Below, piece by piece: positions 10,739 through 30,700 of a DNA stretch of 42,164 nucleotides (position 1 is its first letter; every line of letters begins with the position of its first letter). Position numbers and translations under genes: made by a program. The notes under the pieces were generated by a model. The model searched no databases. It was not told the origin of the DNA and saw only the letters and a program-made list of their open reading frames with translations. The DNA is from a virus. The stretch is taken from positions 1-42,164 of IMG/VR virus record IMGVR_UViG_3300045747_000694; one strand, given 5' to 3'.

Positions 10739-10741
10739 CCC

Positions 10742-12165: not shown

Positions 12166-12201
12166 TTCCCACACCTCTTCCTACCCGGTAGGCTGGGAGC
12201 C

Positions 12202-12600
12202 ATGAACCTCGTGACGATGCGCGCCTTCAGGGACGAGCTCAGCAAGATCGCCGCCGATGGCGGCCTTGCCGGGCTGAGTCCGACCATCGTCGGTGCGGGC
12301 ATCGGTGCTGTCGCGGCCTTCGGGGCACAGGTCATCGCCAACAAGGCCCCCAAGGGCGGCGGCAAGTCGAGCCAGCAGATGAGGTACGAGCAGCTCGAGC
12401 GGGACATCAACGCCGAGACGAAGAACCGCAAGAAGCAGGGGAAGCAGCCCACCTTCTACGGAAAGATGAAGCAGATCGCGGCGAAGCCCATGACGCAGAT
12501 GGCCGCTCTCGCCACCAAGCACCCAGCCCAGGCCGCCATTCCGGCAGCCATCCTCGGCGCCTACACGGGCGCTCTCGTCGCCAAGCACCTGACTAAGTAG
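12202..12600 (+). CDS. Small two-TM Gly-zipper protein (132 aa) with N-terminal AFxDELxKI motif
   Basis: MNLVTMRAFRDELSKIAADGG then GLSPTIVGAGIGAVAAFGAQVI (TM1), a Lys-rich linker, and AAIPAAILGAYTGALVA (TM2). GGCTGGGAGCC lies before the ATG. Confidence 0.6.
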   Translation: MNLVTMRAFRDELSKIAADGGLAGLSPTIVGAGIGAVAAFGAQVIANKAPKGGGKSSQQMRYEQLERDINAETKNRKKQGKQPTFYGKMKQIAAKPMTQMAALATKHPAQAAIPAAILGAYTGALVAKHLTK

Positions 12601-12609
12601 GAGAAGACC

Positions 12610-13575
12610 ATGACCCCAGAGATGCAGCTGGCCCAGGCCCTCGGTGGCGCCCCCGACTCGTCGAAGGAGAAGCTCGCCGGGGCCTTCGACGAGATGTCCG
12701 TCGAGGATCTCGAGGGGATGCTGAAGACTGCCTTCTCCGTCACCGAGGAGGGGCACAAGTTCGACGCCGAGCGCGCCAAGATCCGGCGCGAGAAGGCCGA
12801 GAAGATGTGGGCCTTGTCCCAGAAGCACGAGGGGGCTGGCTCCTCCAAGAAGTTCGGGAAGTTCACCAAGGCGCTGCGCGGGTTCTCGCCCGACGTCGAG
12901 GACGAGCCCCGGCACCACGCCTACGTGGAGAAGAAGCACCGCGAGGGCAAGAACGCCTGGAACCCCTTCGGTGGCCTCGCCACGCCGACCAAGGGGGAGA
13001 AGGGCGGCTCGACCATGCAGTACGGCGAGTTCAAGAGCAAGTCGAAGAAGGCCTCCGTCTCCAACACCGCGGCGCTCGTCGCCGACGGCGTCGGCCGGCT
13101 CATGGCCAAGCAGGCCAACCTCCTCGGAGCTGGCCTCCGCATGGCCACCCGCACCCCGATGGCGACCAGGGCCATGGTGGGCGCCGGGGCGGGCGCTGCC
13201 GGCGGCGCGGTGAGGCACATGACCTCCAACGACCCCAACTCCTCGCTGCTCGGCAACATGGCTGGTGGCGCGGCCCTCGGGGCCGGCGCGGGCGCCGGGG
13301 CCAAGGTCGGGGCCAAGGCGCTCCTCCAGAGCGGCAAGCTGCCGGCGGCTCAGGGTGCCGCGGCGCTCAAGGGGGCCAAGGGGTACTCGCAGACCGGCGT
13401 CGGGGCCTACGCCCGGAAGGCGCTGGGCGAGGCCAACAAGGCCGGCACCGCGGTGGCCACCAAGGCGGGCACCACCGGCAAGGCGGTGGCGCTCAAGGCC
13501 AACGCGGCGGCCGCTCCGGCGGTCCAGAAGGCACGGGCCGCCCAGGCCGCGACGACAGCTGGCTCTGGCATCTGA
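12610..13575 (+). CDS. Gly/Ala-rich protein (321 aa), possible internal virion or ejection protein
   Basis: RBS GTAGGAGAAGACC then ATG. N-terminal KLAGAFDEMSVEDLE loosely matches the family motif. C-terminal half is low-complexity GAGAGA with KxGAK repeats. Confidence 0.55.
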   Translation: MTPEMQLAQALGGAPDSSKEKLAGAFDEMSVEDLEGMLKTAFSVTEEGHKFDAERAKIRREKAEKMWALSQKHEGAGSSKKFGKFTKALRGFSPDVEDEPRHHAYVEKKHREGKNAWNPFGGLATPTKGEKGGSTMQYGEFKSKSKKASVSNTAALVADGVGRLMAKQANLLGAGLRMATRTPMATRAMVGAGAGAAGGAVRHMTSNDPNSSLLGNMAGGAALGAGAGAGAKVGAKALLQSGKLPAAQGAAALKGAKGYSQTGVGAYARKALGEANKAGTAVATKAGTTGKAVALKANAAAAPAVQKARAAQAATTAGSGI

Positions 13576-13600
13576 CCGAGGCGGTCATGAGAGGTAGCCC

Positions 13601-15409
13601 GTGGCGTATGGCAACCGGCTTCCGCTCGACGCCAACGTCGTAGGCTACTGGGGCTTCGACGAGGCGAACGAGACGGATCCAGCTCTCGACGAGAGCCAGT
13701 ACGGCCACAACATGGTCGTCACTGGCTCTCCGTTCGTTCTCCCTGCGCGCTGCAACAACGGCCGGCAGTTCAACGGGTCCTCCACCTACTCCGCCCGGGC
13801 CGACACGGCGCTCCTCAAGCTCACGGGGGACATGACCCTCATCGTCTGGCCCACCCTCGACCAGGTGAACAGCTCCGGCTCTCACCTGCGCTGCATCCTC
13901 GAGTGCGGCGGGACGACCTCGATCCAGGCCGACAACATCCTCTACGGGCTCTACGTCTCGGACGCCGGCGAGCTCATCTACCGGCATGAGCACGGGGCTG
14001 GCCTGGTGGTGGAGTTCAAGACGACCGTCGCCACCATCAAGACGGGGCGCTACTACGCCATCGTCGTCGTCCGCTCGGCCAACGTCCTCACCCTCTACCT
14101 CGACAACAAGCTGACCGCTTGGGCGAGTGCTACCGTCGATGGCGCCTCTCACCCGGTGGGCACGGCGGTGACGGCCCCTGATGGTGGGACGAATGCGCTG
14201 CTCACGATGGGGAAGAGCCCCAAGGCGGTAGACGGGGCCTTCTGGTACGGCACGCTGGACGAGGTCTCCATCCACAACCTCGCCCGCCCCTACCAGCCCT
14301 ACCTGCTCTCCATCTACTACAAGCTCACCCTCTCGAACTCCTTCTACCGCCTCACCGCCTACAACACGGTGAAGAGTGTGGCGGCCGCGGAGATGGGTGG
14401 CGGCTCGAGGTGGTGGGTGTACGAGCGGGACCAGTCGCTCTACGCCGTGCGCGAGAACACCCTGGGCCTCTTCACCCCCGAGGTGCAGCTCACCACTGGC
14501 GGTCTCCAGCCGAACGGGACAGTGGCGCCGGGCGGGACGGAGAAGCCCACCGTCGTCTACGACAAGGCGAACGACCTCCTGGTGGTGGCCTTCATCGGCT
14601 CCGGCCGAGTCTACCGTCTCACCGCGAAGGTCGGGGACGCTCCCCAGACGCAAGCGATGCCCTACACGGTGGACACCGCTGGCATCGTGAAGGTGCGCGA
14701 CTCGGATGAGGGCATCCGCCTCGGTGCCGGTGCGGGCAGCAGGGCTCCCCTCAACGACCTCGCGTACACGAACCGCTACCCCTTGAAGTTCCCGACCAGC
14801 GACTCGATGGGCGCTGGTGCCGGCGGAGGAGACACCAAGGAACTGATGCAGCCCCAGAGTTCGAGCGCCTACTATGCTGCGCCTGGTGACCTGAAGTTCA
14901 CAGGAGTGGACAGCTTTGGGCTTCTGTGGTCCTGGACGAACACTGCCGGGTTCGCAGTCTTCACCGAGCTCTACGGGGTGGCCACTCGGATCGGCACAGT
15001 CATGGCCGCAACGAAGGACAGCAGCGGAAGGACGATGGGCTTCTTCCCCATCACCTCGAGGCAGTACCAGCGCAGGTACTTCGTGAAGCCGCTCTTCTGG
15101 AACGGGACGCTCCGGACCGTGATGTCGAACATCGTGGAGGACCTTCTCGCCACCGCGGACATCTACGACTACCGATACCCGACGAGCGTCGTGTACAACA
15201 GGAACGACGATGATCCACACAGCGCGCCCCTCGGGTCGGGCAACGGACTTCGGGTGGGCGACTTCACCCCGATCTACATCAACCGCACACCCCTCAAGCT
15301 GCCAACCGCAGACGTCATGAGCGCGGGCGGGGGTGCAGGGCTCAGGGTGTCGACCAGCAACTCCGCAAGCATCACCGCGCCTCAGCGCAGGGCATTCGAG
15401 GTCTCATGA
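13601..15409 (+). CDS. Tail fibre / receptor-binding protein with N-terminal LamG (concanavalin A-like lectin) domain (602 aa)
   Basis: GTG start. N-terminal ~220 aa matches the Laminin_G_3 pattern (GYWGFDE...G...G..G.A..F.G....Y...L.......W......YLDNK......GTLDEVSIHN). Confidence 0.7.
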   Translation: MAYGNRLPLDANVVGYWGFDEANETDPALDESQYGHNMVVTGSPFVLPARCNNGRQFNGSSTYSARADTALLKLTGDMTLIVWPTLDQVNSSGSHLRCILECGGTTSIQADNILYGLYVSDAGELIYRHEHGAGLVVEFKTTVATIKTGRYYAIVVVRSANVLTLYLDNKLTAWASATVDGASHPVGTAVTAPDGGTNALLTMGKSPKAVDGAFWYGTLDEVSIHNLARPYQPYLLSIYYKLTLSNSFYRLTAYNTVKSVAAAEMGGGSRWWVYERDQSLYAVRENTLGLFTPEVQLTTGGLQPNGTVAPGGTEKPTVVYDKANDLLVVAFIGSGRVYRLTAKVGDAPQTQAMPYTVDTAGIVKVRDSDEGIRLGAGAGSRAPLNDLAYTNRYPLKFPTSDSMGAGAGGGDTKELMQPQSSSAYYAAPGDLKFTGVDSFGLLWSWTNTAGFAVFTELYGVATRIGTVMAATKDSSGRTMGFFPITSRQYQRRYFVKPLFWNGTLRTVMSNIVEDLLATADIYDYRYPTSVVYNRNDDDPHSAPLGSGNGLRVGDFTPIYINRTPLKLPTADVMSAGGGAGLRVSTSNSASITAPQRRAFEVS

Positions 15410-15954
15410 TCAACATCGAACAGGTAAGCGACGACCATGCGCAAGAGTACCTTCGCAGGCTGAAGGAGGGAGACGATCTCTCCCACTTCGGCATCTCGAT
15501 CAAGGGCTTCTTCGACGTGGTGTGCCGTGAAGAGGGCGAGACGGTTTGGGAGGTCCACCAGCCAAACCTCTTGACGGACTACGGGCGACGCTACTGGGCC
15601 TACGGCAACTTCACCGGCTACGACTACGCCATCTTCACGAGCCCGATTGCGGAGACCCCAAGGGCAGACCGCTACACTCTCGCCGACCACTCAGGTCAGT
15701 GCCAGCAGGCTGCCTTCTGGTACGGAACCAACGACGCCCCCTCGGTCTCCAAGGCGTGGTCCAACACCTTCGGACTGCCCGCCAGCAACAAGACGATCGC
15801 TTCTGTTGGTCTGAGGTCGAATGCTACGGCAGATGCTGGAGCGTATGGGATCAGTTCCATCCTCTGCTACTCGCTCTTGACCCCGATGAAGGTACAGACC
15901 ACCTCCCAGACACTCGAGATCTCGTACCGTCTTACCCTTTCCCCTGGCGTGTGA
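15406..15954 (+). CDS. Hypothetical tail-fibre-associated protein (182 aa)
   Basis: ATGA overlap with the upstream gene. Located between two fibre genes. Confidence 0.5.
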   Translation: MINIEQVSDDHAQEYLRRLKEGDDLSHFGISIKGFFDVVCREEGETVWEVHQPNLLTDYGRRYWAYGNFTGYDYAIFTSPIAETPRADRYTLADHSGQCQQAAFWYGTNDAPSVSKAWSNTFGLPASNKTIASVGLRSNATADAGAYGISSILCYSLLTPMKVQTTSQTLEISYRLTLSPGV

Positions 15955-15961
15955 GGTCCCG

Positions 15962-18900
15962 ATGTCCCAAGTTTCAGCTCTCATTCGTGTCGACTACCAG
16001 GGGCTCGGTGGTATTCGTCAGTCCCTCCAGAAGGCCAACTTGGCCTTCAAGGGCGCGCTGTGGGACATGACTTCATTGTCGTGGACCTGGTCCACCAACG
16101 GCATCGCCATCACTCCCGACTGCATTCCTTACCCCTGGAAGCACCATCCTGCGCTGGCCGCTGGTGCCTCCCAGATGAGTGTCCGACACAGCTTCCACTC
16201 TGACGGCAGCACCTACGGGTTCGGTCTGGCCTTCGGCACACTGGTGGGCATGCGTTCGGGCTTCGACATTGGACGGATGCGCTTCTTCAACTCAACTCCG
16301 CACTACAGCGTGCAGACGGATCAGTGCGTGGCCATTGGTGCGATCACCTTGGTCCACGACATGCGCAGCAACGCCAACACCATCAACAACGGTGCCGGCT
16401 CTGGGCAGGGGAACATGTTCTCTTCCGTTGATCTGGACATCACCCAGATCGGTGCTCCTTACCTGCATCCGGTCTACCAGGGCACGATCGCCACGACGCT
16501 TGGCGCGAGCTACGTCCCGATGGCGCAGGCGAGCATCAGCGCGTACTACTACTACGCTCACCTGGTCACCTGCATCCGTCTCGAGACGGGCGCTGATCGT
16601 GGCTCTTACCTCGTGCAGTCAATCGACCGAGCCAACAGCCGCATCTACCTGAAGAACATGGATGGGTCGAAGTGGGTCGCGCAGGCCACCAACGCCAGCG
16701 TGACCTTCTCCCAAGGCTACCGCGTTTCCTTCTTCAATGAGACCGGCGTCATCCCCAACTCGACGGGGCAGGTCGCGTTCGACGGTAAGTACGACGCGGG
16801 GGACCACCGTGGCTCGTACATCTACCGCATCCACTTCGAGAAGAGCGGATCCCCTTCTCCTGCGGCTGAGGCCCAGAGAGGAAGCTACTGGCTTTCCCTT
16901 CGCGGCTTCTTGAACGGCAACGGAGTTGCGGGTGACCTGTACCACCAGGATGATGGTGGCTTCACGCAGAGGATCTCGTACCACAGCCCCAACACGGCCT
17001 GCGGCTTCTTCTACAACACCTCTATGCTTGGGATGAGCAATGCCATCTCCAGCGGCATGGTCTTGGAGAGGACCAATCAGCGACTGTGGTGCGTTACTGT
17101 CGACGGTACGCAGGGCAACTCCTCTGTCGGCTACTGGAACTACAAGAGCCCCGAGTCCTTCCGTGAGGTGTGCTCCGCTGCGGGGGCCCCGAACGATCCC
17201 CTGCCGGTTCCCTTCACTCCCCCGGCAAGCTCTTACGCGAGAGCACCCGCCATCGGGTCTGACGGCACCGTCTACGTCGCGTTCTCCAAGGTCGCTGACC
17301 AGACCGGTGCGGGATGGCTCGCCATCAAGCCGGACCTCTCCCGCACCTTCGTGACTGCCGCGGCAATGGCGGTTCCGACGAGTGGTGACTTGCAGCCCTG
17401 CGTCGTGGACACCACCAAGGCGCGAACCGGCACGACGGCTGCGGCGTCGACGACGTCCGCTGGTCACATCCTCTGCGCCGGAGCCGGCTTCGCCTCCGCC
17501 GACCTCGGTCGCTGCATCAAGCTCACGGGCAACACCTTCGACAACGGAACCTATCTCATCGGCACCATCAATGGCGCCACGGACATCACGGTCACCAACC
17601 TCAACGGTTCTGCGGTCTCCTTCACTGGGGGCAGCGGCGGCACCTTCCAGATCGGGGATCGCATCTACCTCTTCTCGGGCGGCGAGGCGACCTGGAACGC
17701 GGGCAAGATGTCTTGGACGGACTCCCTCTCGTTCGGAACTCGCTTCACGAAGACCGTCACCATGACCGCGGGGGCACAGGCCTACTCCTACCCCTACTTG
17801 GGCGGAGCGCCTCCGGCATGCGTGGACCCCCTCACTGGGAGAATCTTCTGGCTGTCGGCTGATGGGGTGAAGCACCTCAACATGTACGACCCTGCTGCGC
17901 AGACAGTGACACAGCGGCCTCTCAGCGACCTTGCTGTGCAGGTGTCCGGCTCGAACGCCAACCCCACTGCGCCCACCGTCATGTGGACGGTGGCGGTGAA
18001 CACCAACACCTACTTCCGCGAGCTCTGGGTGGGCACCGACAAGGGCCACTACCGGTTCGACCCCGACAACCTCTCTGCCCAGTTCTCTCGCTTCTACGGA
18101 ACCTCCAACGGCACGTACGCCGAAGCCGACGGTAACCTCCAGCTCGACGGGGGTGTCACTGAGTGGGCCGCGAACGTGGCACAGAACATCGGCGCAACTC
18201 AGTACGGCTTCATGCCTGACGGGCAGGTGTTCGGTATCCTGCCCTCCTGGGGTCTGAGCAGTGCGTCCTACTTCCCCATGCTGGTGAAGTTCAACCGCGA
18301 GGCGCACAACTGGCTCTCCGCAGCCACCATCGGAGGCAATGAGTCCCAGGCGCAGTGTCTCCAGAGCACGTACGCGTTCTGGTACACCAACACGGTTTCC
18401 TTCTTCTTCGATCCCTTCGGGGCACTCGTCTTCTACCAGCCCAACATGAAGGCCGAGACTGCCAAGGGGGCCATCAGGCTTGTCCACCCTTCCGCCATCC
18501 ACTACCAGTGGACTGGTAGCGCGTGGACGCCTCGGGAGGTTGTGCGTGGCGGTCTTCCGGACTCCGTGTCCTCCCCGGGCTGCCTCTGCAAGCCGATGCA
18601 CACGACGCTCGACGACCTCGTTCTTGGTGTGAAGGTCAAGTTCACGTCCTCTGGTGCCGTCGGCGGGGAGAACGGAGAGTTCCTTGGCCGCTTCGGCCAG
18701 AAGGGGCTCAGCAGGACTGACGGTGCCACGGTCATCGGAACGAACGGCTTCGTCGGCTCCGGCTTCAGCGCGCTCTCGTTCACCAGCCCCGATGTCGGCC
18801 GCTACTACGTCCGCATCGAGTCCGGTGCCGACCAGGGTACCTACAAGATCCTCACCTACACCAACGACACGTCGATCACTCTTCAGAAGTTCAATGGCAC

Positions 18901-21385
18901 GGCCTTCTCTGCCGCCGCCACCGCCGGCACCCTGTCCTACTCCGTGTGGGACATGCAGGCCGGGGCCGCCGTGGGTCCGGAGTGCTGTTCCGTCATGGCC
19001 AATGTCGGCATCGGCAAGGACAACACCCAGGACTTCACCGGCATCTACGCCGACTGGTTCGTCTCAAAGACTCTCCTCTCGGAGCAGGCGGAGGCGGTGA
19101 AGTTCTGCACGGACATCCTCCCGCCCGTGGGGTCCTCTGCCGTGCAGGCCTACCAGGAGAACTACCAGTACGACTACCGAGCGGCGATGGGCGCCCACCT
19201 CGCTCTTCCTGGATCTCCCATTGCGAACCACGTCATCGACGGTGGGGCGTCTCGCCCCCTCGATGGCGCCGGCGGTAGGGCGTGGATGGGGACCTACACC
19301 TCTTGGAGAGGGCCACAGGTCAGTATCGTCGTGGGGCAGCAGGTCTCCGTGGACCTCGGGCAGGACTTGGAGATCGGCTCCATCATCGTGCGAGGTTGTG
19401 CGCAGAACACGGGTGCCCCCAACACAGCGGGTGCGCTTGCGACTCCCGGTAACGGGTACGGGGGAATGATTGCGAGCATCCTCAGCGCTCCCAACTCTGG
19501 CGGTGCTCCTGCGGCATCCTCCACCGTTCGGTGCGCCGGCAGCAGCAACCTCTCCGGCACGCTCAACACGGCCACCATCACCACGACCGGCGACTTCATG
19601 GGAAGCGCCACGGGGGTGACCGCCAGCGATGGCGCGACGAACATCATCAGCATCGGGGCCAGCTCCTTCCAGTCGGCGGTCAGCAGGTTCTCCCAGACCA
19701 ATGTCGGGATGATCCTGAAGACCACCAGCGGGCCGGACGTGGGGCAGTACCGCATCCTGACCGTGAGCGGCGACGGCTCCACGGTGACTGTGAGGAACCT
19801 CGATCAGACCTCGAAGACCTGGAGCGGCACGGCCTCTGGCATCGCCTTCACGGTCTACGACGGCGTGCAGGACGAGGACCTCATCTGCATCCCCAGCCTC
19901 GGGACGCCTACCTACCGCCTGGTCGTCGAGCGCCTCTCGAACGACGCCAAGACGGCCTATCCGAGAGTCCAGCTGGGGACCACGATCGCGAGCCAGAGCT
20001 GGCAGTGCGTGAAGCCAAGCTGGAACCTTGTGAAGAGGATCTCCTCCACCGGGACCGTGCTTCCTCCAGAGGTCAGCAACAACGGCACCTTCTTCTCGAT
20101 GGATGGTGGGGAGAACTTCGGACACTTCAACCTTCCGACCGGTACCAGTCGGTCGCCTTCTCGATGGTGGAAGGCCGTCATCGACCTCTCCGATCTCTCC
20201 ACAGCAAAGCGGACGGCCCGGTGGTGGAAGTTCGCCGCGCTGGGTAGGGAGTTGAATCTTTGGCAGTACGGGGCTGAGTACTACCTCTCTTCCCTTGAGT
20301 TCTACGACACGAGCGGAAAGAGGATGTTCACCCACGACTACTGCCAGGCTGATACGGTCTTCGCGCAGCCGCAGATGATCAGCGTCTTCTACACGAGGGC
20401 GGACTTCCTCCTCGCGTCCAACGCCGCTGCCCCTCAGTACACCGGCTACAACGGAACCGCCATCCTCGGGGGGACGAGCGGCAACACGGTCACGCTGACG
20501 GGGAGCAACAAGTTCCTGGGCTACCAGCTCCGCCCGAAGGGAGCGCTGGGCACCATCCCGGGGAGCTCGAACGTCTTCAACGGCCACGCCAACGACCCGG
20601 CCTTCCTGACCACGACCGATGTCGGCAGGTTCTTGAAGATCAACACCGGCGTCAACGCTGGGGTCTACCGCATTGCCACCGTCCCCGGTGCGACCCAGGT
20701 CACTCTCGTCACCATCAACAGCGCTGCGGTGACCCTCACGGCGGATGCCGGTCCGGTGGAGTACTCGATCCACGAGGGCATCAACGTCGGAGGGGCGAAC
20801 CCCGACTTCCTCTACTTCACCACGGGGGGCAACTCGGCAGGGCGCAAGGAGCTCACCCTCGCCACCCTCTCTGATGACCTCACGACCGTTACTGTGGTCG
20901 AGAGCCAGTTCGGAAGTCTTTCGGGCCAGAGCTGGGAGATCCGCAGAAGGGCTCTCGAGGATCGCACGCAGACGCCCGGGACGAACAGCGGTGCCAGCGC
21001 GCGGCTCCTCTACGTCGAGGCCATGTACCCCTACCAGTCTGGGGACATCTGCCAGGACACCAAGGGCTACGTGAAGTTCTGGCCCGGTGACATCGGAGGT
21101 ACCAACAAGACGGCCGGAGTCGCCGTGGGTGGCACGGCCAACTTCCAGGCCGCCTCTTCCGGCACCTTCACCCAGGACGATGTGGGGCGGATCCTCCTCA
21201 TCACCTCTGGCGTCAACAAGGGGTCCTACCGCATCTCGGCATACAACAGCACCAGCGAGGTGGCCCTGGTGAACCACTTCACCGGCGCCGCAGTGTCACT
21301 CACCGGGGACGCCTCGGTGACCTACACGATCCTCGGCGAGAGGCGCTTCCGCTTCAGCCGCTACGTCACCTCCCTGAGGTCGTAG
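15962..21385 (+). CDS. Giant tail-fibre or host-interaction protein (1807 aa) with six copies of a ~55-aa repeat module
   Basis: Single uninterrupted ORF with high GC3. Repeats with consensus D(V/L)GR.(I/L).(I/L)..G...G.Y.I...V......VTL......A....G....Y.I lie at roughly aa 205-255, 513-571, 942-997, 1246-1300, 1551-1606 and 1739-1792. Confidence 0.75.
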   Translation: MSQVSALIRVDYQGLGGIRQSLQKANLAFKGALWDMTSLSWTWSTNGIAITPDCIPYPWKHHPALAAGASQMSVRHSFHSDGSTYGFGLAFGTLVGMRSGFDIGRMRFFNSTPHYSVQTDQCVAIGAITLVHDMRSNANTINNGAGSGQGNMFSSVDLDITQIGAPYLHPVYQGTIATTLGASYVPMAQASISAYYYYAHLVTCIRLETGADRGSYLVQSIDRANSRIYLKNMDGSKWVAQATNASVTFSQGYRVSFFNETGVIPNSTGQVAFDGKYDAGDHRGSYIYRIHFEKSGSPSPAAEAQRGSYWLSLRGFLNGNGVAGDLYHQDDGGFTQRISYHSPNTACGFFYNTSMLGMSNAISSGMVLERTNQRLWCVTVDGTQGNSSVGYWNYKSPESFREVCSAAGAPNDPLPVPFTPPASSYARAPAIGSDGTVYVAFSKVADQTGAGWLAIKPDLSRTFVTAAAMAVPTSGDLQPCVVDTTKARTGTTAAASTTSAGHILCAGAGFASADLGRCIKLTGNTFDNGTYLIGTINGATDITVTNLNGSAVSFTGGSGGTFQIGDRIYLFSGGEATWNAGKMSWTDSLSFGTRFTKTVTMTAGAQAYSYPYLGGAPPACVDPLTGRIFWLSADGVKHLNMYDPAAQTVTQRPLSDLAVQVSGSNANPTAPTVMWTVAVNTNTYFRELWVGTDKGHYRFDPDNLSAQFSRFYGTSNGTYAEADGNLQLDGGVTEWAANVAQNIGATQYGFMPDGQVFGILPSWGLSSASYFPMLVKFNREAHNWLSAATIGGNESQAQCLQSTYAFWYTNTVSFFFDPFGALVFYQPNMKAETAKGAIRLVHPSAIHYQWTGSAWTPREVVRGGLPDSVSSPGCLCKPMHTTLDDLVLGVKVKFTSSGAVGGENGEFLGRFGQKGLSRTDGATVIGTNGFVGSGFSALSFTSPDVGRYYVRIESGADQGTYKILTYTNDTSITLQKFNGTAFSAAATAGTLSYSVWDMQAGAAVGPECCSVMANVGIGKDNTQDFTGIYADWFVSKTLLSEQAEAVKFCTDILPPVGSSAVQAYQENYQYDYRAAMGAHLALPGSPIANHVIDGGASRPLDGAGGRAWMGTYTSWRGPQVSIVVGQQVSVDLGQDLEIGSIIVRGCAQNTGAPNTAGALATPGNGYGGMIASILSAPNSGGAPAASSTVRCAGSSNLSGTLNTATITTTGDFMGSATGVTASDGATNIISIGASSFQSAVSRFSQTNVGMILKTTSGPDVGQYRILTVSGDGSTVTVRNLDQTSKTWSGTASGIAFTVYDGVQDEDLICIPSLGTPTYRLVVERLSNDAKTAYPRVQLGTTIASQSWQCVKPSWNLVKRISSTGTVLPPEVSNNGTFFSMDGGENFGHFNLPTGTSRSPSRWWKAVIDLSDLSTAKRTARWWKFAALGRELNLWQYGAEYYLSSLEFYDTSGKRMFTHDYCQADTVFAQPQMISVFYTRADFLLASNAAAPQYTGYNGTAILGGTSGNTVTLTGSNKFLGYQLRPKGALGTIPGSSNVFNGHANDPAFLTTTDVGRFLKINTGVNAGVYRIATVPGATQVTLVTINSAAVTLTADAGPVEYSIHEGINVGGANPDFLYFTTGGNSAGRKELTLATLSDDLTTVTVVESQFGSLSGQSWEIRRRALEDRTQTPGTNSGASARLLYVEAMYPYQSGDICQDTKGYVKFWPGDIGGTNKTAGVAVGGTANFQAASSGTFTQDDVGRILLITSGVNKGSYRISAYNSTSEVALVNHFTGAAVSLTGDASVTYTILGERRFRFSRYVTSLRS

Positions 21386-23217
21386 TGGCCGTCTCAGTCA
21401 TCGCACAGACGACGAACGAGGGGAGCGTGCGCTCTGTCTCCTCGTTCGTCCGAGGTGGGGTGGCTTACCTTGCATGGGCGGTGCAGGGGTTCGGCACCGA
21501 CTGGCAGCTCCAGTGGAAGAGCTACTCCGGCGCCTACTTCACCGAGGTCGTCGCAGACACCTTCGCAGCCTTTCGTAACATGGCGACGATCCTGTCTCCG
21601 GTCGGGGACATCTTGACTGTGGTGTATGCCGACGCCGCCGAGTCGTCTCTCTACTGCCTTCGCTTTCGCCCAACGACGGGCGCGAGGGTATCTGGTCCGA
21701 CGAGGATCGGTCCCGGGAGTCGTCCCTCTCTCGTCTTCCGCGGCAACCTCGAGGGGGACCGCGTAGAGGTCGTCTACGCGCACTCCGCCAGAGAGGGAGT
21801 GTTTGTTCGGGAGAGCTTGGATGGCGGGGCTTCGTGGTCCGGGGAGCGCCCCGTCCTCAGCAACTACGTGAGAGGGTCCTCTGCGGTAGCCGCTGCTCCT
21901 CTCGACGATGGCCACATGTCTCTCTTCCAGATCGGGGTCGATGCGCGGCCGCTCGTGGAGTTGGGGAGCTACTCGAGGACGAGGCCACTCAGCAACATCG
22001 TGAAGCACCCCACACTGGCTGACCGCTTCTTCGTCTCCGAGCCTACCTGGTACGACTCCACCTACTTCACGGACCACACCAAGGGAGGTCTTCGAGTCAC
22101 CAGGGACGGCACCCAGCTGGTGTGGTCGGATGGCGTTCGGCTCGGCGCCGATGATGGGGTGAACGAGGTCGCCCTGCTCGACACCTCCGGGCTGGCCCCC
22201 TCTCTCGTGTCCTCCGTGCACAACAGCAGCGTCGACGGCAGCCTGGGAGACAACCTCGCCTTCTTCACGATCTCCCCCTTCGCGGCCGTTGGTGCCGTGG
22301 ACCTCTTCGGTGCGAGCTCTGTCCCCCTCGTCACCGGCTTCAATCTCTCGAACGACTACATCTACGTGGCGGGGTCGAAGGAAGTAGCTCCCCGTACGAG
22401 CGGTGGCGGCATCGACGTCGTTCGCATCTCTGACTTGGTTACCGCCAGGGTCGTCGGCTCGAGCTCCACCATCTTCGGGCACGCGGTTGGTGTTGGCGTT
22501 CCCCCAAGCGGTGCAGCCATCATCGCGGTGGCCACGCAGGAGAGCGGACAGGAGATGGTGCGGCTCTACCAGGAGAACGGGCTTACCCCGACTCTCCTCA
22601 TCTCCCACAAGATGCCAGCCTACGTGAACAAGGTCATGCTGATGCTGGACACGGCGTCGGTGGGCGACCTCTTCGTGTCGATGGTCGACAGGTTCAACAT
22701 CTACCATATCGAAGGGATGACCTCGGCCATGCGCCTCGTGGCCACCGTCCCCCTTCTCAGCAAGGGGTCCGTCTTCCAGGCAGTGCCTGCCGCGAACGGG
22801 AACATCGTTTGCGCGCTAGGGATGGGAGGTGTCGCCGTCTTCTCTCCGAACGGAGGGATCGTGGCGCAGTCGGTGGCCTCTGGGATCAGCCCCAAGACCT
22901 GGCGGGGCGGCACCACCTACGCGCTGAACGACCTGGTCGTGCCTACTGAGAAGAGCGTCTACGCTCCCTTCAGGAGGTACTTCATCTGCTCGACGGCAGG
23001 CACGACAGGACAGGGCGAGCCAGCGTGGTGCCCAGCGGCCTACGGCACCGTCGTGGACGGCACGGCGAGGTGGACAGAGGTGGGTCCTATCGACGCTGTT
23101 GTCACAGGTGTCGCACTCGACCAGACTAGGAAGCGCATCTACGCAGTGGGCAACGTGGGCGGCTTCCTCGGCAACACTGGTCGTGTGTACTCCTTCGACG
23201 CAACAGGGCTCATCTGA
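21385..23217 (+). CDS. Tail protein with BNR/Asp-box motif and beta-propeller-like repeats (610 aa)
   Basis: GTG overlaps the upstream TAG by 1 nt. One canonical Asp-box, SLDGGASWSG. Recurrent G..V...G.G.V..FSPNG strand-turn segments suggest a propeller. Confidence 0.6.
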   Translation: MAVSVIAQTTNEGSVRSVSSFVRGGVAYLAWAVQGFGTDWQLQWKSYSGAYFTEVVADTFAAFRNMATILSPVGDILTVVYADAAESSLYCLRFRPTTGARVSGPTRIGPGSRPSLVFRGNLEGDRVEVVYAHSAREGVFVRESLDGGASWSGERPVLSNYVRGSSAVAAAPLDDGHMSLFQIGVDARPLVELGSYSRTRPLSNIVKHPTLADRFFVSEPTWYDSTYFTDHTKGGLRVTRDGTQLVWSDGVRLGADDGVNEVALLDTSGLAPSLVSSVHNSSVDGSLGDNLAFFTISPFAAVGAVDLFGASSVPLVTGFNLSNDYIYVAGSKEVAPRTSGGGIDVVRISDLVTARVVGSSSTIFGHAVGVGVPPSGAAIIAVATQESGQEMVRLYQENGLTPTLLISHKMPAYVNKVMLMLDTASVGDLFVSMVDRFNIYHIEGMTSAMRLVATVPLLSKGSVFQAVPAANGNIVCALGMGGVAVFSPNGGIVAQSVASGISPKTWRGGTTYALNDLVVPTEKSVYAPFRRYFICSTAGTTGQGEPAWCPAAYGTVVDGTARWTEVGPIDAVVTGVALDQTRKRIYAVGNVGGFLGNTGRVYSFDATGLI

Positions 23218-24713
23218 TGGCTGACGGCTTCATCACTCTGGTTTCCATTCAGCCCTCTGGCTCGACCCAGGCGGAGACCTTCACCGAGGCCGGCGGCAGC
23301 ACGATGAAGCAGGGCCTCTTCGCGCATCGTCGGCAGAACCAGACCGGAGCCCCAACACTCTCTCCCGGTGCCCCTCTCTTGCCGGGCAGGCTGCTCGCGC
23401 TGACTGCGGGGTCGCTGGCCATCTCGTCGGCATGGAGCACTGTGGCGGGGGCTGTCTCCTTCAACCTCTACTGGTCGACGACTCCGGGCGTCACGCTCTC
23501 GAGCAACAAGATCACAGGCGTCAGCTCTCCCTACGCACACACCGGCCGCACCGCTGGGCAGAGGGTCTACTACGCGCAAACGGTCGTGACGGAGGCAGGG
23601 GAAGGACCGCTCGGCGCAGAGGTGTCGGAAGTGGCGCAGGCTCTTCCCCCAAGCGAGACCGTGGCGATGCTCTCGCCAGTCATCGACTACCCTCTCCGTG
23701 GGTTCCCGCACAGCACGGTCTCCCTCTCCCTGGCCTTCTACGGGGTCGACCCCCGAGCCACCTCCTACAACGTCTACTGGAGCCTGACGCCTGGAGTGAC
23801 CTCCGGCTCCACCAAGGTCGCGGGGATCAGTGGCTCTCCGTTCGTACATGAGGGCCTTCTGGCCGAGACCCCGTACTACTACCGGGTCTCCTGCACGGGA
23901 CCTTCTGGTGAGAGCGGCCTGTCTCCTGAGATGAACGGCACCACTGGCCGCCCCTTCGACGTTGTGGATGCCAACACCTACTTGATGTGGCTGAATGAGT
24001 CGTCTGCCGGAAGCGTACTCACGGACACGGTCCGCAGCTGGACCATTGCGCTGTCTGGTGGGTCCCTGCGAGCGAACTCCGGTATGTCAGGCCGTCTGAG
24101 GGCTGGGAACTCGCTACAGACCTTCGCAGGCAACTACTACCACGCGGTCTCGAACCTCGGCGCCACGAACTCTGGCCTGCTGAACGCCGTCTTCGCGGGG
24201 GAGTTCACCTTCGACCTCTGGCTGGCTGCGGGCAACTACCCGGGCTACCCCGGCATCGTCAACTGGACTCCGACAGGGACTCCGGTCGTCGGCTATGGTG
24301 ATGCCACTGTTCTCGCCAACAAGTGGTTCTACATCGGGTTCAACCGAGACGATCTCGCCAACCTCAAGCTCTACTACCAGTGGCGCGACTCGACAGGCGC
24401 CACCATCACCGGCTACTTCGCCGACCACTTCAATGCCGACTCCCTAGAGAACGGCGGCTTCCACCTCTACACTGTGCGACGCAAGAGTATGGGGGCGGGG
24501 AAGTACCAGACGGACTGTTTCGTCGATGGAGCCCTCAGCTCCTCCTCTGGCCTGGAGAACGCCATCAACGGGAACTCCACCAACTGCGTCTTCGACATGG
24601 GCGGCTACACGCCGCAGGGCTACATCTTCTTCACGGGCATGTACGACATCATCCGCATCAGCAACCGGGCGCGCTCCGATGGCGAGATCGCCGACTACTT
24701 CATCGCTGGATAG
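23217..24713 (+). CDS. Tail fibre protein: two fibronectin type III domains plus C-terminal LamG domain (498 aa)
   Basis: Tandem FN3-like segments (AVSFNLYWSTTPGVTLSSNKITGVSSPYAHTG...YYAQTV and ATSYNVYWSLTPGVTSGSTKVAGISGSPFVHEG...YYYRVS). C-terminal Laminin_G_3-like region ending GMYDIIRISNRARSDGEIADYF. ATG overlaps the upstream TGA. Confidence 0.7.
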   Translation: MADGFITLVSIQPSGSTQAETFTEAGGSTMKQGLFAHRRQNQTGAPTLSPGAPLLPGRLLALTAGSLAISSAWSTVAGAVSFNLYWSTTPGVTLSSNKITGVSSPYAHTGRTAGQRVYYAQTVVTEAGEGPLGAEVSEVAQALPPSETVAMLSPVIDYPLRGFPHSTVSLSLAFYGVDPRATSYNVYWSLTPGVTSGSTKVAGISGSPFVHEGLLAETPYYYRVSCTGPSGESGLSPEMNGTTGRPFDVVDANTYLMWLNESSAGSVLTDTVRSWTIALSGGSLRANSGMSGRLRAGNSLQTFAGNYYHAVSNLGATNSGLLNAVFAGEFTFDLWLAAGNYPGYPGIVNWTPTGTPVVGYGDATVLANKWFYIGFNRDDLANLKLYYQWRDSTGATITGYFADHFNADSLENGGFHLYTVRRKSMGAGKYQTDCFVDGALSSSSGLENAINGNSTNCVFDMGGYTPQGYIFFTGMYDIIRISNRARSDGEIADYFIAG

Positions 24714-24725: not shown

Positions 24726-25664
24726 ATGATCGCCTTCCCGTACACCGCCCGCTACTTCATCCGGTTCCGCCACTCGGACACGGGGCTCACTCCGTCCTTC
24801 AGCTACTACAAGCGGTCGGACACCCTCGTCGGCGTGACGCCCCCTACCGTCTACGAGGTGGGCAACGGGTCGTACTACTTCGACCACACCTTCGCGGCCT
24901 CGACCTCCCCGGACATCGTCTTCGAGGCGGACGGTGGCGCGTCGATCCCCACCGAGGAGGTTCGGTACGTCTCCGACACCCTCTCGGTGAAGGACTTCTT
25001 CCTGGACGAGCCGGTGTCCCAGGTCGTGACTGACGTCTGGGCCAACAGCGCGGTCTACGGTGCCGGCACGAAGGGGAAGCGCCTCGACGACGTCGGCGTG
25101 TCGGGCGACGCCTACAACGCGGGCACCCTCTTCGGCGCCATCATCAACGCCATCGAGATGATCCGCGGGGACGGACACGGCAACACGGCGGGCAACAGCG
25201 TGAAGCAGGCCTACGACCGCATCGGTGCTCCGATCGGCGTGACCATCTCGGCCGACCTCCAGACCATCAACTCGCACATCACCTCGTCGACAGGCGACAC
25301 GGGCACGGCCATCACCGCCGCCGTCGTCAGCATCAAGGGCGCCAACGACCGGGACATCACCCAGGTCTACAACTTCGCCAGCCACTTCGACGGGCAGATC
25401 GACGTCGTGCAGGCAATGGTCGAGAGGTGCCTCGGGATGCTCCACGAGAACGCCGTTCTCGACAAGTGCATCTACGACGGGACCACCAACAACCTGCGCT
25501 CGGCCCGGCTCCGCATGTACGACAGCTCGGCTCACGCCCAGGCGGCCAAGGCGCTGGGGGACGGGACCACCTACACCACGGGCATGCTCGGCCAGCACTC
25601 CATCGTCGCCGAGTACCTGGGCGGCAACATGTCGAACTACATGGTGGTGCGCGAGATCCCGTAA
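24726..25664 (+). CDS. Hypothetical tail/baseplate protein (312 aa)
   Basis: RBS GAGGGGACTCACC then ATG. High GC3. Confidence 0.55.
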   Translation: MIAFPYTARYFIRFRHSDTGLTPSFSYYKRSDTLVGVTPPTVYEVGNGSYYFDHTFAASTSPDIVFEADGGASIPTEEVRYVSDTLSVKDFFLDEPVSQVVTDVWANSAVYGAGTKGKRLDDVGVSGDAYNAGTLFGAIINAIEMIRGDGHGNTAGNSVKQAYDRIGAPIGVTISADLQTINSHITSSTGDTGTAITAAVVSIKGANDRDITQVYNFASHFDGQIDVVQAMVERCLGMLHENAVLDKCIYDGTTNNLRSARLRMYDSSAHAQAAKALGDGTTYTTGMLGQHSIVAEYLGGNMSNYMVVREIP

Positions 25665-25673
25665 GGAGCTGCG

Positions 25674-26585
25674 ATGCTGGAAGTCACCAAGTTCTGGACT
25701 CGGTCCTTCGACCTCGACAGGGTCGATCTCTTCTGGGAGATCGCCAACGTCCCTGGCCCGCGCTCGGATGCGGACCAGCACGAGGTCTTGGCGCACGAGG
25801 TCTTCGTTCTTCGGGCCGGGGACAGCCCAATGGGTCCGTACGAGCAGATCGGCGGACCGCTTGTGGATCAGTACCTCTTCCGCGATGTGAAGGTGAACCT
25901 CCTTCACAAGTGGAGGCAGTACTTCTACAAGCTGCGGGTCGTGGATCGCCGGACGGGGGAGGCCAAGGAGTTCGGCCCCACCTCGTCCGGCGAGGATGCG
26001 CCCGACCTCATCGCCTCCGAGATCCAGCGCCAGGAAGACGTTCTCTTCAGGGAGTTCGTGGGGAAGAAGGGCTACCTCTTCATCGCCCGGACCTTCGGCC
26101 CAAGGTGCTCCTGCTTCGACGCCACCCTGGGGCGCATCACCAGGTCGAACCACCGTCCCTGCTACGGCACGGGCTGGCTCGGCGGCTACATGCAGCCCAT
26201 CGAGATCTACGCCCAGCTCGACCCCAACCCCAAGAACGTCAACCACAGCTCGCTTCCTCCCCAGCAGCCGAGCGACACCACCGGAAGGATGATCTCCTTC
26301 CCACCTGTGTCCCCCAAGGACATACTGGTCGAGGCAGACAACAGGCGTTGGAGGGTCATCAGCGTTCGCAACACACAGAGGCTCCGCTCCGTGGTGAGGC
26401 AGGACATCCAGCTGCACGAGATCCCCAGAGGGGACATCGAGTACGACCTCCCTGTGAGTGTGGATGAGAGAGCGATGGAGGCCGTCGCCGGCCGCAACTA
26501 CACGAACCCCCAGAACGTCGAGAGCAGCAAGAGCTACACCGACATCCTCGCCGCCTACGGACACCCCAGTGGAACTCTCAGGTAG
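25674..26585 (+). CDS. Hypothetical tail/baseplate protein (303 aa) with FN3-like N-terminal region and Cys cluster
   Basis: RBS GTAAGGAGCTGCG then ATG. N-terminal DLFWE...YFYKLRVVD strand pattern. Central CSCFD...GRITRSNHRPCYGTGW possible Zn site. Confidence 0.55.
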   Translation: MLEVTKFWTRSFDLDRVDLFWEIANVPGPRSDADQHEVLAHEVFVLRAGDSPMGPYEQIGGPLVDQYLFRDVKVNLLHKWRQYFYKLRVVDRRTGEAKEFGPTSSGEDAPDLIASEIQRQEDVLFREFVGKKGYLFIARTFGPRCSCFDATLGRITRSNHRPCYGTGWLGGYMQPIEIYAQLDPNPKNVNHSSLPPQQPSDTTGRMISFPPVSPKDILVEADNRRWRVISVRNTQRLRSVVRQDIQLHEIPRGDIEYDLPVSVDERAMEAVAGRNYTNPQNVESSKSYTDILAAYGHPSGTLR

Positions 26586-27708: not shown

Positions 27709-30700
27709 ATGGCGACTGGTGAGCTTCTGAGGCCCGGAGTCGAGGTCATCCAGCAGATCCGGAAGACCTCTCCGACCGTGCTTCGCCCGACGCTCGTTCC
27801 CTGCGTGGTGGGAACGGCGTTCGAAGTCGTGAACGTTCTCAACTCGGACGGGACGATCAACTCGAAGGCGAAGTGGGGCACGTACGCACAGGTCGCCAAG
27901 GCGATCTCGGAGAGCGCCTTCCCCGACCCTCGCGGCAACATCGCGGAGCTCGACTTCCTCGAGGACACCGTCCGGCCGTACCTGCTGCACGGTGGCTCCC
28001 TGAGCTACCTGCCGCTCACGCACGGGTCGTCCTTCCTGGCCTCCCTGCACAAGTCGAGCAAGGCGGTCATCCGGACCGACGTCTTCTCCGGCGTCTCCGG
28101 GCTGGACCTCAACGGCCTGGTGCTCACCCTCGCCCTCGACCTGCCGGCCATCGCCGACCACAGCCGCGACATCGCCATCACCTTCGTCGGCTCCGGCATC
28201 GGCGGGACCGGGGTGCTCACCTCCCAGCAGTGCGCGGACCAGATCAACGCCGCTGTCGGCGAGCTCGTCGCCACCGTGGTCGGCGCCGCGCCCAGCGACC
28301 GGGTGCAGATCGCCTCGCCCACCTACGGCGCGCTCTCCTCGGTCACCATCCGGCCGGGGACGGCCAACGTGCCGCTCAAGGTCGCCTTCCTCACCACCGA
28401 CGGCAACTACACCGAGCGCGTCGAGGGTGCCGGCCTGCGCGGCCAGGACGACCTGAACAACGACACGGTCACTCCGTGGGTCGAGTTCTTCCAGGGCGAG
28501 TACTACTACGGCGCGGGCTCCGCGGCCGTCGCCACCACGTACCGCGCGCAGTGCGGCGCCATCGACCTCGAGACCCAGGCCTTCGCGGCCGCCAAGGCCG
28601 CGGCGGTCACCTTCTCAGGTGGCAGCCCGACCGTCGCCCTCAAGGTCGGCGACTTCGTCGTCGCCGACGGCGTGCGGCTCGCCAGCGGCGAGGTGATGAA
28701 GGTCGAGACCAGCCGGTTCAAGGTCGGGACCATCAACACCCTGCTCTCCACCGCCGACGCGCAGGGCAGCTACACCACCAAGGTCTACGACGGCCAGCAG
28801 GTCGGCACGGCGTACGACACGACCCCGTTCGCCCCGACGTACTGCTTCTTCGTGGCCAACGACATCGACTGGCGCCTCGCCACCGGGGCGCTGGCTGCCG
28901 CGGTCACCGGCAACGGCGCCCACTCCGCGGCCGCGGCGGCCACCGTCGCCACCGTCGCCACGCCCTCGGGCCCCTACTCGCTCCAGGGCCTGGGCCTTCA
29001 CTACACCTCCACCATCGACGGCGTGGAGACCGAGGGGACCTTCACCTTCACGGCCGCGTCCTACCTCGACATGGACGCCGTGGTCGCAGCTCTCGGGACC
29101 AACATCCCCGGCGTGCTCGCCACCAACGACGCGGGCCAGCTCCGGCTGACCTCGACGAAGACCGGCGTCCTCCAGGGCATCAAGGTCTGGGGCAACAGCA
29201 CCTGCCGCTCGGTGCTGCTCTTCGCCCTCGACGTCGCCGACCTCGGCGAGGACACCCTCTACACCGCCAACACCGGCCTGACGGGCAAGTACCTGACCTT
29301 CCAGTTCGACCGGAACCCCCACACCTACGCGGTGCTGGCCACCAGCAACTCCCTCGAGGAGCTCGTCTCCGAGATCAACAAGACCGTCGGCGTGACGGTG
29401 GCGACCATCTCGTCGGGCTTCATCGTGCTCACCTCGCCCCTCAAGGGCATCGCGAGCCGGGTGACCATCCTCGACACCGGCAGCAACAAGGCCGAGGACA
29501 ACCTCGGGCTGACCGCCGGCAACACCGACGGCACCGGGCGCCCCTACCCGGACGCCTACCTCGACGACGCGCTGGTCCTCCACATCGGCTCGGAGATCCT
29601 GCGCGACTCCGTCACCGGCTACCCCCTCGACCAGGCCTACGACACGGGCACCCTGTACGTCCAGTACAAGGCGCTCCGCAAGGACGTCTCGGCCGCCGCG
29701 GCGCAGCCCGGCGTCATCCGCGTCTCCGACACCAGCACCCTGCTGGCGGTCCTGGACCCGGTGACCGAGGAGAACCCGCTGGCCCTGGGCATGTTCCTCA
29801 CCATGCTGAACGCCCCCACCTTCGAGGTGAAGGGTCTCGGCATCGACGAGGTGACCGCGGCCGCCCCCGAGGGCACCGAGGTGGCCTGGGCCCGCGCGGC
29901 CGCGCTGCTGGAGACCGAGGAGGTCTACGCCATCGCCCCGCTCACCCAGAACGAGGTCGTCCAGGGCATGTGGATGACCCACTGCTCGGTGATGAGCGCC
30001 CCGGAGCAGGGCGGCGAGCGCATCGTCTTCCCCAACAAGAAGATGCCGACCAACAAGAACTCGTCCATCGCGGCGAGCGGCTCGGCGGCCAACACCACGG
30101 CCTCCCCGAACCAGCTGGTCATCGACATGAACCCGTCTTCGGGTCTCGTGGCGCTCGGCCTCAACCCCGCCCTCGGCTTCGCCGTGGCGCAGGGCGTCTT
30201 CGTCGAGGTCACGGTCGCGAGCGAGCTCCGCCGGTACAGCGTCTCGAGCGTCACCGGCTCCCTCGTGAACCTGCGGACCACCTTCTCCTCCAGCGAGAAC
30301 GCCGACGCCTTCTACTCGGACGTCTTCCTGGACGTCCCGGTGGTCAACAGCGCCTACACGCTGAAGGTGCGCGGCGCGGCGCTCACCATCCCGGGCACCA
30401 ACCCGGCCATGTACGACTACTCGCTCATGAGCGAGACGGTCGCCGAGGCCAACACGCTCTTCAAGAACCGGCGCGTCTACGAGGTCTTCCCGGACACCGT
30501 GAAGCTCCAGGTGAGCGGCGTCGAGAAGGCCCTGCCCGGCTACTACGCCTCCTGCGCCATCGTCGGCATGGTGGCGGCGCAGCCCCCGCAGCAGGGCTTC
30601 ACCAACTTCCCCATCGTCGGCCTGACCGGCGTGGTGGGGACCGAGAAGTTCACCAAGCGCCAGCTGAACGTGATGGCCGGTGGCGGCACCTACATCCTGA

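Follow-up and report, generated by a model that had tools for sequence, protein, structure and literature searches.

The window analysed here is a stretch of viral DNA of 42,164 nucleotides (IMG/VR virus record IMGVR_UViG_3300045747_000694, positions 1 to 42,164), in which five consecutive open reading frames (ORFs) of the + strand, called P1 to P5 below, fill positions 13601-24713. On balance, we lean towards the view that this block is a co-inherited and co-transcribed cassette of virion-surface adhesins with which a large uncultured myovirus probably recognises its host. Several lines of evidence point this way: the exchange of the block as a cassette between related contigs and its presence or absence at the locus; folds of the adhesin type (two LamG, two FN3 and one propeller); domain accretion; the anchor architecture of P5 and of g312, the product of the next gene; operon-like packing; the presence of tail sheath and tube genes downstream; and the lack of any enzymatic signature.

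Organization and exchange of the block

The initial annotation of this region had described five consecutive genes. They are real, with exactly the boundaries given there, and all five proteins have homologues in other contigs, where the order P1-P4 is kept. The third-position G+C content (GC3) of the five ORFs ranges from 0.78 to 0.88. At three of the four junctions, the stop codon of one gene overlaps or directly adjoins the start codon of the next, and promoter-like and terminator-like sites are no commoner than chance between positions 12500 and 32400; the tight junctions, together with the lack of excess sites, make the genes look like one translationally coupled transcription unit. A lower GC3 of the cassette was considered as a sign of foreign origin and rejected, as the pattern recurs in relatives and in the neighbouring genes g303 and g258. 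The block had also been described as an unusually large investment, a claim that arose because the window was taken as a whole genome. The window's own P3 and P4 sit on a 153-kb metagenomic contig, on which 11 kb is ordinary, and their homologues are found on contigs of 68-209 kb. In phage T4, the fibre and baseplate-periphery genes occupy a comparable amount of DNA.

Three close relatives have a common gene order: g178, further genes, pre, P1, P2, P3, P4, a small ORF, g312, g303, g110, g258, sheath and tube. When the window was compared with one 198-kb contig, L006, the genes outside the block (the chassis) encoded nearly the same proteins, with amino acid identities of 99% for the major capsid protein (MCP), 98-99% for other head proteins, 91% for g303, 93% for g258, 90% for the sheath and 99% for the tube, whereas identity was 51% for P1, 48% for P2, 49% for P3 and 43% for P4. 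Similarly, the two DNAs are about 90% identical at 6848-12648 and 24729-32360, and 64-71% identical within 13587-23323. The right edge of this divergent island is sharp and lies at the start of g312, where identity to L006 jumps to 0.8-0.87 at position 24728; the left edge is fuzzier, in or just before pre. A second pair of contigs, L003 and L006, differs in P1-P4 (73-85% identity) to an extent similar to that of their chassis (85-98%). P1-P4 are thus not intrinsically fast-evolving, which indicates that the window carries a replaced allele of the whole block. Judged from these sequence comparisons, the block is an exchangeable recombination cassette in an otherwise 90-99% identical backbone. 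A 12-kb cassette that is below 52% identical, set against a near-identical chassis, offers an unusually clean contrast and amounts to a natural experiment.

Other relatives lack the block at this locus. In L010 (a 134-kb contig), a homologue of pre is present though the cassette is missing: it runs directly into g303, and neither P1-P4, nor the P5 anchor (see below), nor g312 is found there. The same genes are missing from the locus of L011 (a 102-kb contig), where two unrelated genes (346 and 415 amino acids) precede g303. The L010-L013 contigs, which include one of 209 kb, gave no P3 or P4 in pattern scans; as these scans also missed two contigs known to carry P4, a genome-wide absence of P3 and P4 from L010-L013 is only suggestive. 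The surrounding genes are informative in cultured phages as well. Homologues of g178 (11102-11638 in the window) and g303 are adjacent in Salmonella phage Arash (L005, 21311-22639) and in Vibrio phage D69 (L060, 5129-6550), but 14 kb apart in the window, which points to the cassette being an insertion into a conserved head-tail-joining cluster.

Domain content of the five proteins

Neither the block by megablast, nor P3 and P4 by tblastn, gave a match among GenBank phages (about 50,700 records). The only PHROG matches in the block were phrog_14220 (P1) and phrog_20658 (P4), and no annotated tail, baseplate or fibre PHROG was matched by any of the proteins. Sequence searches of the PDB with P1-P5, and with family profiles of P1-P4, returned chance-level matches only (GABA transaminase, NlpC/P60 at E 0.011, and NHL propellers). 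No match to a right-handed beta-helix, pectate lyase, glycoside hydrolase (GH) or polysaccharide lyase (PL) was obtained with the five proteins in Pfam, PHROG or the PDB, and none of them matched an enzymatic family. With no relatives among GenBank phages and an unassigned repeat in P3, the particulars of this block are new; mosaic lectin-like adsorption modules are already well known.

P1 (602 amino acids; 13601..15409; all block features are on the + strand) was recognized by its ORF and GC3. It comprises a conserved N-terminal segment of about 58 residues, a LamG domain and an internally duplicated C-terminal half, and its orthologues are 35-53% identical over the full length. The LamG domain (Laminin_G_3 / concanavalin A-like; residues 59-229, 13775..14287) matches Pfam PF13385 with an E value of 4.9e-11 and 43.4 bits, for a cut-off of 27.6, over profile positions 2-145 of 151. 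Three orthologues match Laminin_G_3 at the corresponding site (E 8.8e-6 to 2.4e-3) and concur with this assignment, so that the N-terminal LamG proposed initially for P1 is well founded. The domain has long belonged to P1 and is inherited vertically with it. Residues 9-85 match phrog_14220, a family of unknown function. In L004, P1 has about 170 extra amino acids directly after the conserved N-terminal 60 or so. The internal duplication of the C-terminal half (14765-15334; residues 389-409 and 558-578) is of a regular kind: each duplicate ends in Y-x-N-R-x-P-[LV]-K ... D ... G-G-G-G, a motif that four orthologues keep without change.

P2 (182 amino acids; 15406..15954) is a small conserved protein whose orthologues, of 179-192 amino acids, are always encoded between P1 and P3. 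Pfam, PHROG and the PDB gave no match for it. The possibility that P2 is a LamG-like duplicate of P1 was considered on the basis of a BLAST E value of 0.001, and was rejected as hhalign of both family profiles was blank.

P3 (1807 amino acids; 15962..21385) is a giant all-beta multidomain protein, for which no Pfam, PHROG or PDB assignment was obtained. A search with its first 1200 residues against 1.84 billion cluster representatives retrieved 35 proteins, about 29 of which are full-length orthologues. P3 is colinear with its orthologues, is evenly conserved along its length and ends in a conserved GERRFR. In the public (JGI) gene call, P0020 (1736 amino acids), P3 begins 71 codons later (region 15962-16174); the ATG at 15962 is supported because orthologues align from residues 1-3.

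P3 had been described initially as a repeat protein, and this proved accurate: it contains six dispersed copies of a domain of about 65 residues, at positions conserved in the orthologues. The pattern is F-x3-DVGR-x-L-x-I-x2-G-x-[DN]-x-G-x-Y-x-I ... T-V-T ... Y-x-I, and a hidden Markov model (HMM) built from the window's copies finds the same six sites in orthologues (35-49% identity) with E values of 1e-14 to 1e-24. Repeat 1 (residues 195-259, 16544..16738) is divergent and was detected with an HMM built from copies 2-6 (E 5.8e-8). Repeat 2 lies at residues 505-572 (17474..17677), with orthologue matches at the corresponding position in the E value range given above. In the AlphaFold2 (AF2) model, repeat 3 (residues 935-1002, 18764..18967) has a predicted local distance difference test score (pLDDT) of about 75-80, and repeat 4 (residues 1238-1305, 19673..19876), a small beta domain of 4-5 strands, reaches 85-90. 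Repeat 5 (residues 1544-1611, 20591..20794) and repeat 6 (residues 1731-1798, 21152..21355), which is almost C-terminal, were identified by the repeat search and AF2. The longer orthologues P0110, P0116 and P0117 (1957-2126 amino acids) have 8-10 copies where the window's protein has six, which suggests that the family grows by adding repeat-containing modules. Searches with the repeat were negative both in Pfam (E up to 10) and, with a profile of 26 sequences, in the PDB. An SH3-like reading of it, prompted by the NlpC/P60 match mentioned above, was dropped, the matched chain being presumably the catalytic domain. The AF2 model of residues 608-1807 has an overall pLDDT of 56.7, with the repeats predicted as small 4-5-strand beta domains at 75-90 and the long stretches between them predicted poorly, and Foldseek retrieved no PDB fold for it at E<=1e-3. 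Such confident beads joined by unconfident linkers are as would be expected if an intertwined multimeric fibre were predicted as a monomer.

Structure prediction of each protein had been proposed initially as a check. For P4 (610 amino acids; 21385..23217), the AF2 model, based on 19 homologues (pLDDT 83.5), is all-beta and has about 11-12 four-stranded blades, arranged as some 4-5 N-terminal blades followed by a 7-bladed C-terminal propeller; P4 is therefore a propeller in the generic sense. Its closest structures are the 7-bladed WD40, YncE and integrin propellers, none of the top 60 is a sialidase, and a Foldseek search of viral models returned generic phage propeller proteins only. The initial annotation had assigned P4 to the BNR/Asp-box propellers. 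The propeller and one conserved Asp-box are confirmed, and the BNR/sialidase type is not: P4 has no Pfam match at E<=0.1, including BNR, BNR_2 and glycoside-hydrolase families; its profile reaches sialidase Asp-box regions in the PDB only at E 0.65-0.7 over 26 residues; and the model is not a six-bladed sialidase-like fold.

The Asp-box, S-L-D-G-G-A-S-W (residues 144-151, 21814..21837), is placed by the model between strands 3 and 4 of the third blade, which is where Asp-boxes of propellers lie (PMC2716378). It is kept in 17 of 19 family members, with N for D in the two others, G148 and W151 being invariant, and the chance expectation of such a motif is about 0.03 in 3699 residues. A single S-x-D-x-G-x-x-W is present, with no relaxed extra copies, where sialidases have several, typically 3-5, and the invariant residues of P4 show no recognisable order of a FRIP motif plus Asp-boxes. 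The box is located in the small N-terminal part, outside the 7-bladed propeller. The Asp-box is a structural rather than catalytic hairpin motif, for which a ligand-binding role was judged highly unlikely, and singlets occur in unrelated folds (PMC2716378). The initial hint of a depolymerase or glycosidase, which had been drawn from this box, is not upheld, the single box being structural and P4 resembling generic 7-bladed propellers.

Two further features of P4 are conserved. First, the sequence RTRP-x5-KHPT (residues 198-210, 21976..22014) lies between the N-terminal and C-terminal parts of the propeller, with RTRP kept in all members and KHPT in most. Second, a Trp-rich insertion of about 70 residues in a C-terminal blade (residues 495-565, 22867..23079) matches PHROG 20658 'head decoration' (E 2.7e-8), with W506, E545, P546, W548, D558 and W563 invariant. 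A CBM5/12 identity of this insertion is not claimed, as Pfam gives no support for it. P4 of L006 is 104 amino acids longer than that of the window, and P0018 is a P4-like protein with an inserted LamG domain.

P5 (498 amino acids; 23217..24713) is an accessory, variable member of the block, made of an N-terminal anchor, two FN3 domains and a LamG domain. The anchor (residues 1-41, 23217..23339) is homologous to stand-alone ORFs of 51-55 amino acids in relatives: it is 59-64% identical to 55-amino-acid ORFs at the corresponding place in L003 and L006, and distant relatives have a weaker counterpart of 51-55 amino acids. The FN3-FN3-LamG extension is absent from all 11 IMG/VR loci examined. What is a 55-amino-acid peptide in relatives has thus become, in the window, a 498-amino-acid FN3-FN3-LamG protein. 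In a P5 orthologue from another contig, P0038, the same N-terminal anchor is followed by three FN3 and two LamG domains.

The tandem FN3 domains of P5 (about residues 53-140 and 146-246, 23373..23954) are assigned by homology to carriers of PF00041. Residues 53-246 share 36-43% identity (E 1e-28) with the tandem repeats found in dozens of bacterial PF00041 proteins; nearly all of 67 homologues of this region carry PF00041, and identity to the FN3 repeats of P0050 is 38%. This region of the window protein has no direct Pfam match, fn3 in P0038 scores 24.0 bits against 25 (E 4.6e-5), and the match of P5 to the Fn3-like PDB entry 3mpc is weak (E 0.049). The LamG domain (residues 327-492, 24195..24692) matches PF13385 with an E value of 7.3e-6 and 26.6 bits, for the cut-off of 27.6, over profile positions 16-151 of 151; the LamG of P0038 passes this cut-off with 46 bits, and from its sequence the P5 domain is very probably a true Laminin_G_3 member that falls 1 bit short. 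The organization proposed initially for P5, two FN3 and a C-terminal LamG, is therefore retained. This LamG is part of the accessory extension.

The occurrence of LamG in both P1 and P5 had been taken as a sign of domain shuffling. Two LamG domains are indeed present, but they are only remotely alike (no BLAST match; hhalign E 0.007, 22% identity), and their presence in both proteins does not stem from recent shuffling between the two. Domain accretion among orthologues of the block, as in P1 of L004, in P0018, in P0038 and on the P5 anchor, is by comparison of these sequences real.

Possible roles of the block

In the scheme that we favour, P1-P4 would form a co-adapted core, to which P1 would contribute an attachment segment, a LamG beta-sandwich and a duplicated half, P2 would be a small partner protein, P3 a probably elongated, beta-rich protein with six small domains, and P4 a two-part propeller. 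P5 would be an optional arm, in which an anchor of about 41 amino acids displays FN3-FN3-LamG. The proteins would act on cell-surface polymers, of which glycans are the most plausible, by binding and not by cleavage, and specificity would shift by recombination of the whole cassette and by gain and loss of lectin-type domains. Binding is favoured over cleavage because of the absence of any match to an enzymatic family, and because LamG, FN3 and propeller folds are typical binding scaffolds. Carbohydrate is, judging from these folds, a plausible candidate receptor. We infer that the proteins are incorporated into the virion, at the baseplate or fibres or else at the neck, that their ligands are glycans and that they act on host range. 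As for the receptor-binding role attributed to the block in the initial annotation, interaction with the host is supported indirectly, by exchange, by absence of the block from two relatives and by the gain and loss of lectin domains.

Several observations weigh against this view. Searches of GenBank phages and PHROGs revealed no homologue among experimentally characterised phage proteins, and virion incorporation and location are consequently assumed. P1-P4 are colinear and evenly conserved, without the hypervariable C-terminal tip typical of receptor-binding proteins. The cassette is located between the head-tail-joining genes g178 and g303, not beside recognisable baseplate genes, and the only family match of P4 outside its propeller is the 'head decoration' PHROG. 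The P3 model is poor, with no fold match at E 1e-3. Finally, LamG, FN3 and propeller folds also serve protein-protein contacts. Virion location is the weakest point of the adhesin proposal, to which a neck or collar, decoration or purely structural role is a serious rival.

P1-P4 might accordingly be structural tail parts (baseplate periphery, neck or collar) that have no receptor specificity and are exchanged together in order to fit one another. We regard this as unlikely, although it agrees with the fact that P1-P4 always occur together, each of them colinear and evenly conserved, and sit among head-tail-joining genes; furthermore, the invariant RTRP and near-invariant KHPT of P4 and the C-terminal GERRFR of P3 resemble fixed contact surfaces between proteins. 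However, L010, L011 and D69 share the chassis of sheath, tube, g178 and g303, yet are without the block at the locus; the failure of pattern scans to find P3 and P4 on the L010-L013 contigs goes in the same direction, with the limit stated above. In addition, the insertion of extra lectin-type domains in P1 and P4 orthologues implies exposed surfaces.

A more specific proposal, which is similarly improbable in our estimation, is that the block is an undescribed 'plug-in' adsorption organelle of myoviruses of about 130-210 kb, in which four obligatorily linked proteins are built around the giant P3 (5-10 repeats) and a two-part propeller. It would sit among neck and connector genes and be kept, missing or exchanged as a whole in phages that are otherwise nearly identical. 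If this were true, these phages would have a second, optional host-recognition device near the neck, apart from the canonical baseplate fibres.

Somewhat less probable again is a role of the proteins as Hoc- or whisker-type decorations of the capsid or neck, which would serve general adherence to biofilm, mucus or particles, or environment sensing, and not binding to a primary receptor. This explanation is most plausible for P5, which has a short anchor with an Ig-like display of FN3-FN3-LamG and is dispensable, most relatives having a bare anchor. It is also consistent with the match of the P4 insertion to PHROG 20658, and with the position of the cassette directly after head-completion-type and before neck- or tail-completion-type genes. 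On the other hand, the PHROG match spans only about 70 residues of P4, a conserved core of four proteins and 12 kb is large for a decoration, and no protein was linked to the capsid in this analysis.

Least of all do we expect P4 to be a sialidase-like (BNR/GH33-type) or other propeller glycosidase acting as a depolymerase of capsule or extracellular polysaccharide: its canonical, family-conserved Asp-box in a strand 3-4 loop, the very weak profile match to sialidase Asp-box regions and the fact that many Asp-box propellers are glycosidases (PMC2716378) are outweighed by the presence of a single box, by its position in the small N-terminal part rather than in the 7-bladed propeller, by the absence of Pfam BNR, BNR_2 and glycoside-hydrolase matches and by the non-enzymatic nature of the nearest 7-bladed structures.

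If the block is an adhesin cassette, as we favour, it belongs with the mosaic, lectin-decorated adsorption modules that are the main host-range determinants of phages, here in a clade of large environmental myoviruses that is almost unstudied. The analysis yields candidate host-range genes for this clade, a giant protein family and its small repeat domain that are both new, and anchor peptides that might serve to display foreign domains.

Genome context and comparison with known systems

Upstream of the block, pre (12610..13575, +) encodes an Ala/Gly-rich protein of 321 amino acids, of which only the first 30-50 or so are conserved with close relatives: the alignment to L006 covers residues 1-29 by tblastn and 1-49 by blastp, and nucleotide identity falls after about position 12650. 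The protein is of low complexity, measures 274-407 amino acids in relatives, and its gene is at the left edge of the divergent island. Downstream, g312 (24726..25664, +; 312 amino acids) is conserved over its N-terminal 103 residues or so and variable in its C-terminal part; over the conserved segment it shares 59-63% identity with 491- and 527-amino-acid proteins of L001 and L004, and the remainder differs. Like P5, it combines an anchor with a variable part, and it probably belongs functionally with the block. In L013, a 940-amino-acid protein with fn3 and a Kelch beta-propeller (56-2878) is encoded immediately upstream of a g312-like gene, so that this variable neighbourhood holds a different propeller/FN3 protein there. 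The next gene of the window, g303 (25674..26585, +), is a conserved chassis gene, with 87-91% identity to L003 and L006 and 25-29% to Arash gp234 and D69 protein 0278.

The window has a G+C content of 64-65%, with an unbroken series of genes of very high third-position G+C on the + strand. Its source is an uncultured contractile-tailed phage of roughly 150-200 kb, from a clade of uncultured myoviruses. The HK97-type MCP (429 amino acids; 8909-10198) matches PHROG 2522. The gene of the tail sheath (1114 amino acids; 27709..31053, +) is followed directly by that of a probable tail tube protein (244 amino acids; 31089..31823, +), the arrangement of a contractile tail. The sheath matches Phage_sheath_1C at its extreme C-terminus (E 0.0067) and, by tblastn, the annotated sheaths of phages E3, G and Tonenili as well as Arash gp236. 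It is unusually long compared with those of Arash and D69 (about 700 amino acids), and its likeness to known sheaths is confined to the C-terminal 200-400 residues or so; the remainder probably consists of extra surface domains. The tube shares 27-29% identity with the post-sheath proteins of Arash and D69, and 98-99% with its counterparts in L003 and L006. Among cultured phages, the nearest relatives are Salmonella phage Arash (OQ632216) and Vibrio phages D69, D181 and D148, distant myoviruses of about 180-187 kb; identity to them is about 28-30% for the MCP and 25-31% for sheath, tube, g178 and g303. Arash is an 'orphan' myovirus of 180.8 kb (PMC10585845).

Some other features were noted. 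The 572-amino-acid product of 4157-5875 (+) shares 38% identity with Arash gp222 and contains a segment that resembles prohead proteases (PHROG 18299), and an AAA-type ATPase (PHROG 249/168) is encoded on the opposite strand (39052-40008, -). ARAGORN reported a 92-nucleotide tRNA-Arg(TCT) at 9621-9712 (-), antisense to and wholly inside the MCP gene, which is probably a false positive. In L001 and L004, distant relatives that have the P1-P4 block, an rIIB-like protein (PF26926) is encoded just downstream on the opposite strand (13649-14914, -), which fits large lytic phages.

Comparison with characterised systems shows partial likenesses. In Arash, gp229 (2548 amino acids) and gp230 (615 amino acids) are encoded between the MCP and sheath genes and were detected in particles (PMC10585845). 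The window resembles Arash in having a giant protein and a protein of about 615 amino acids between these genes, while D69 differs from Arash in having no giant gene there. Homology of P3 with gp229 and of P4 with gp230 was rejected, hhalign of the families being blank. Positional equivalence was likewise rejected, the Arash pair being upstream of the g178 homologue and the window cassette downstream. The location on opposite sides of g178 and the lack of homology indicate that the two are independent insertions.

P4 resembles Asp-box propellers (GH33 sialidases, phage endosialidases and the Vps10 domain) in its Asp-box hairpin between strands 3 and 4, but it has one box, and a 7-bladed WD40- or YncE-like propeller with an extra partial propeller instead of the six-bladed sialidase fold; unlike endosialidases, it has no beta-helix or stalk, and no BNR or GH match. 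The LamG domains of P1 and P5 and the FN3 pair of P5 are like the Laminin_G_3 (PF13385) and FN3 (PF00041) display modules of phage and bacterial surface proteins, except that the FN3 domains of the window's P5 are below Pfam detection and that the two LamG domains are remote from each other.

T4 Hoc and other Ig-like or FN3 proteins are phage decoration proteins. The anchor of P5 differs from that of Hoc in being N-terminal and only about 41 amino acids long, and no sequence similarity links the two proteins. P5 nevertheless recalls Hoc: behind a short putative virion anchor it has Ig-like (FN3) domains in tandem and a lectin domain, and it is dispensable in relatives.

The long and short tail-fibre genes of T4, and horizontally swapped tail-fibre modules, are modular receptor-binding cassettes. 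The block of the window differs from them in that it shows no sequence or PHROG similarity to characterised fibre or baseplate proteins, in that P1-P4 are replaced as whole alleles and not by their C-terminal tips, and in its head-tail-joining rather than baseplate location. It shares with T4-type fibre cassettes the block-wise recombination of putative adsorption genes in a conserved chassis, the combination of a conserved N-terminal anchor with a variable distal part (P5 and g312), and the presence of large beta-rich repeat proteins.

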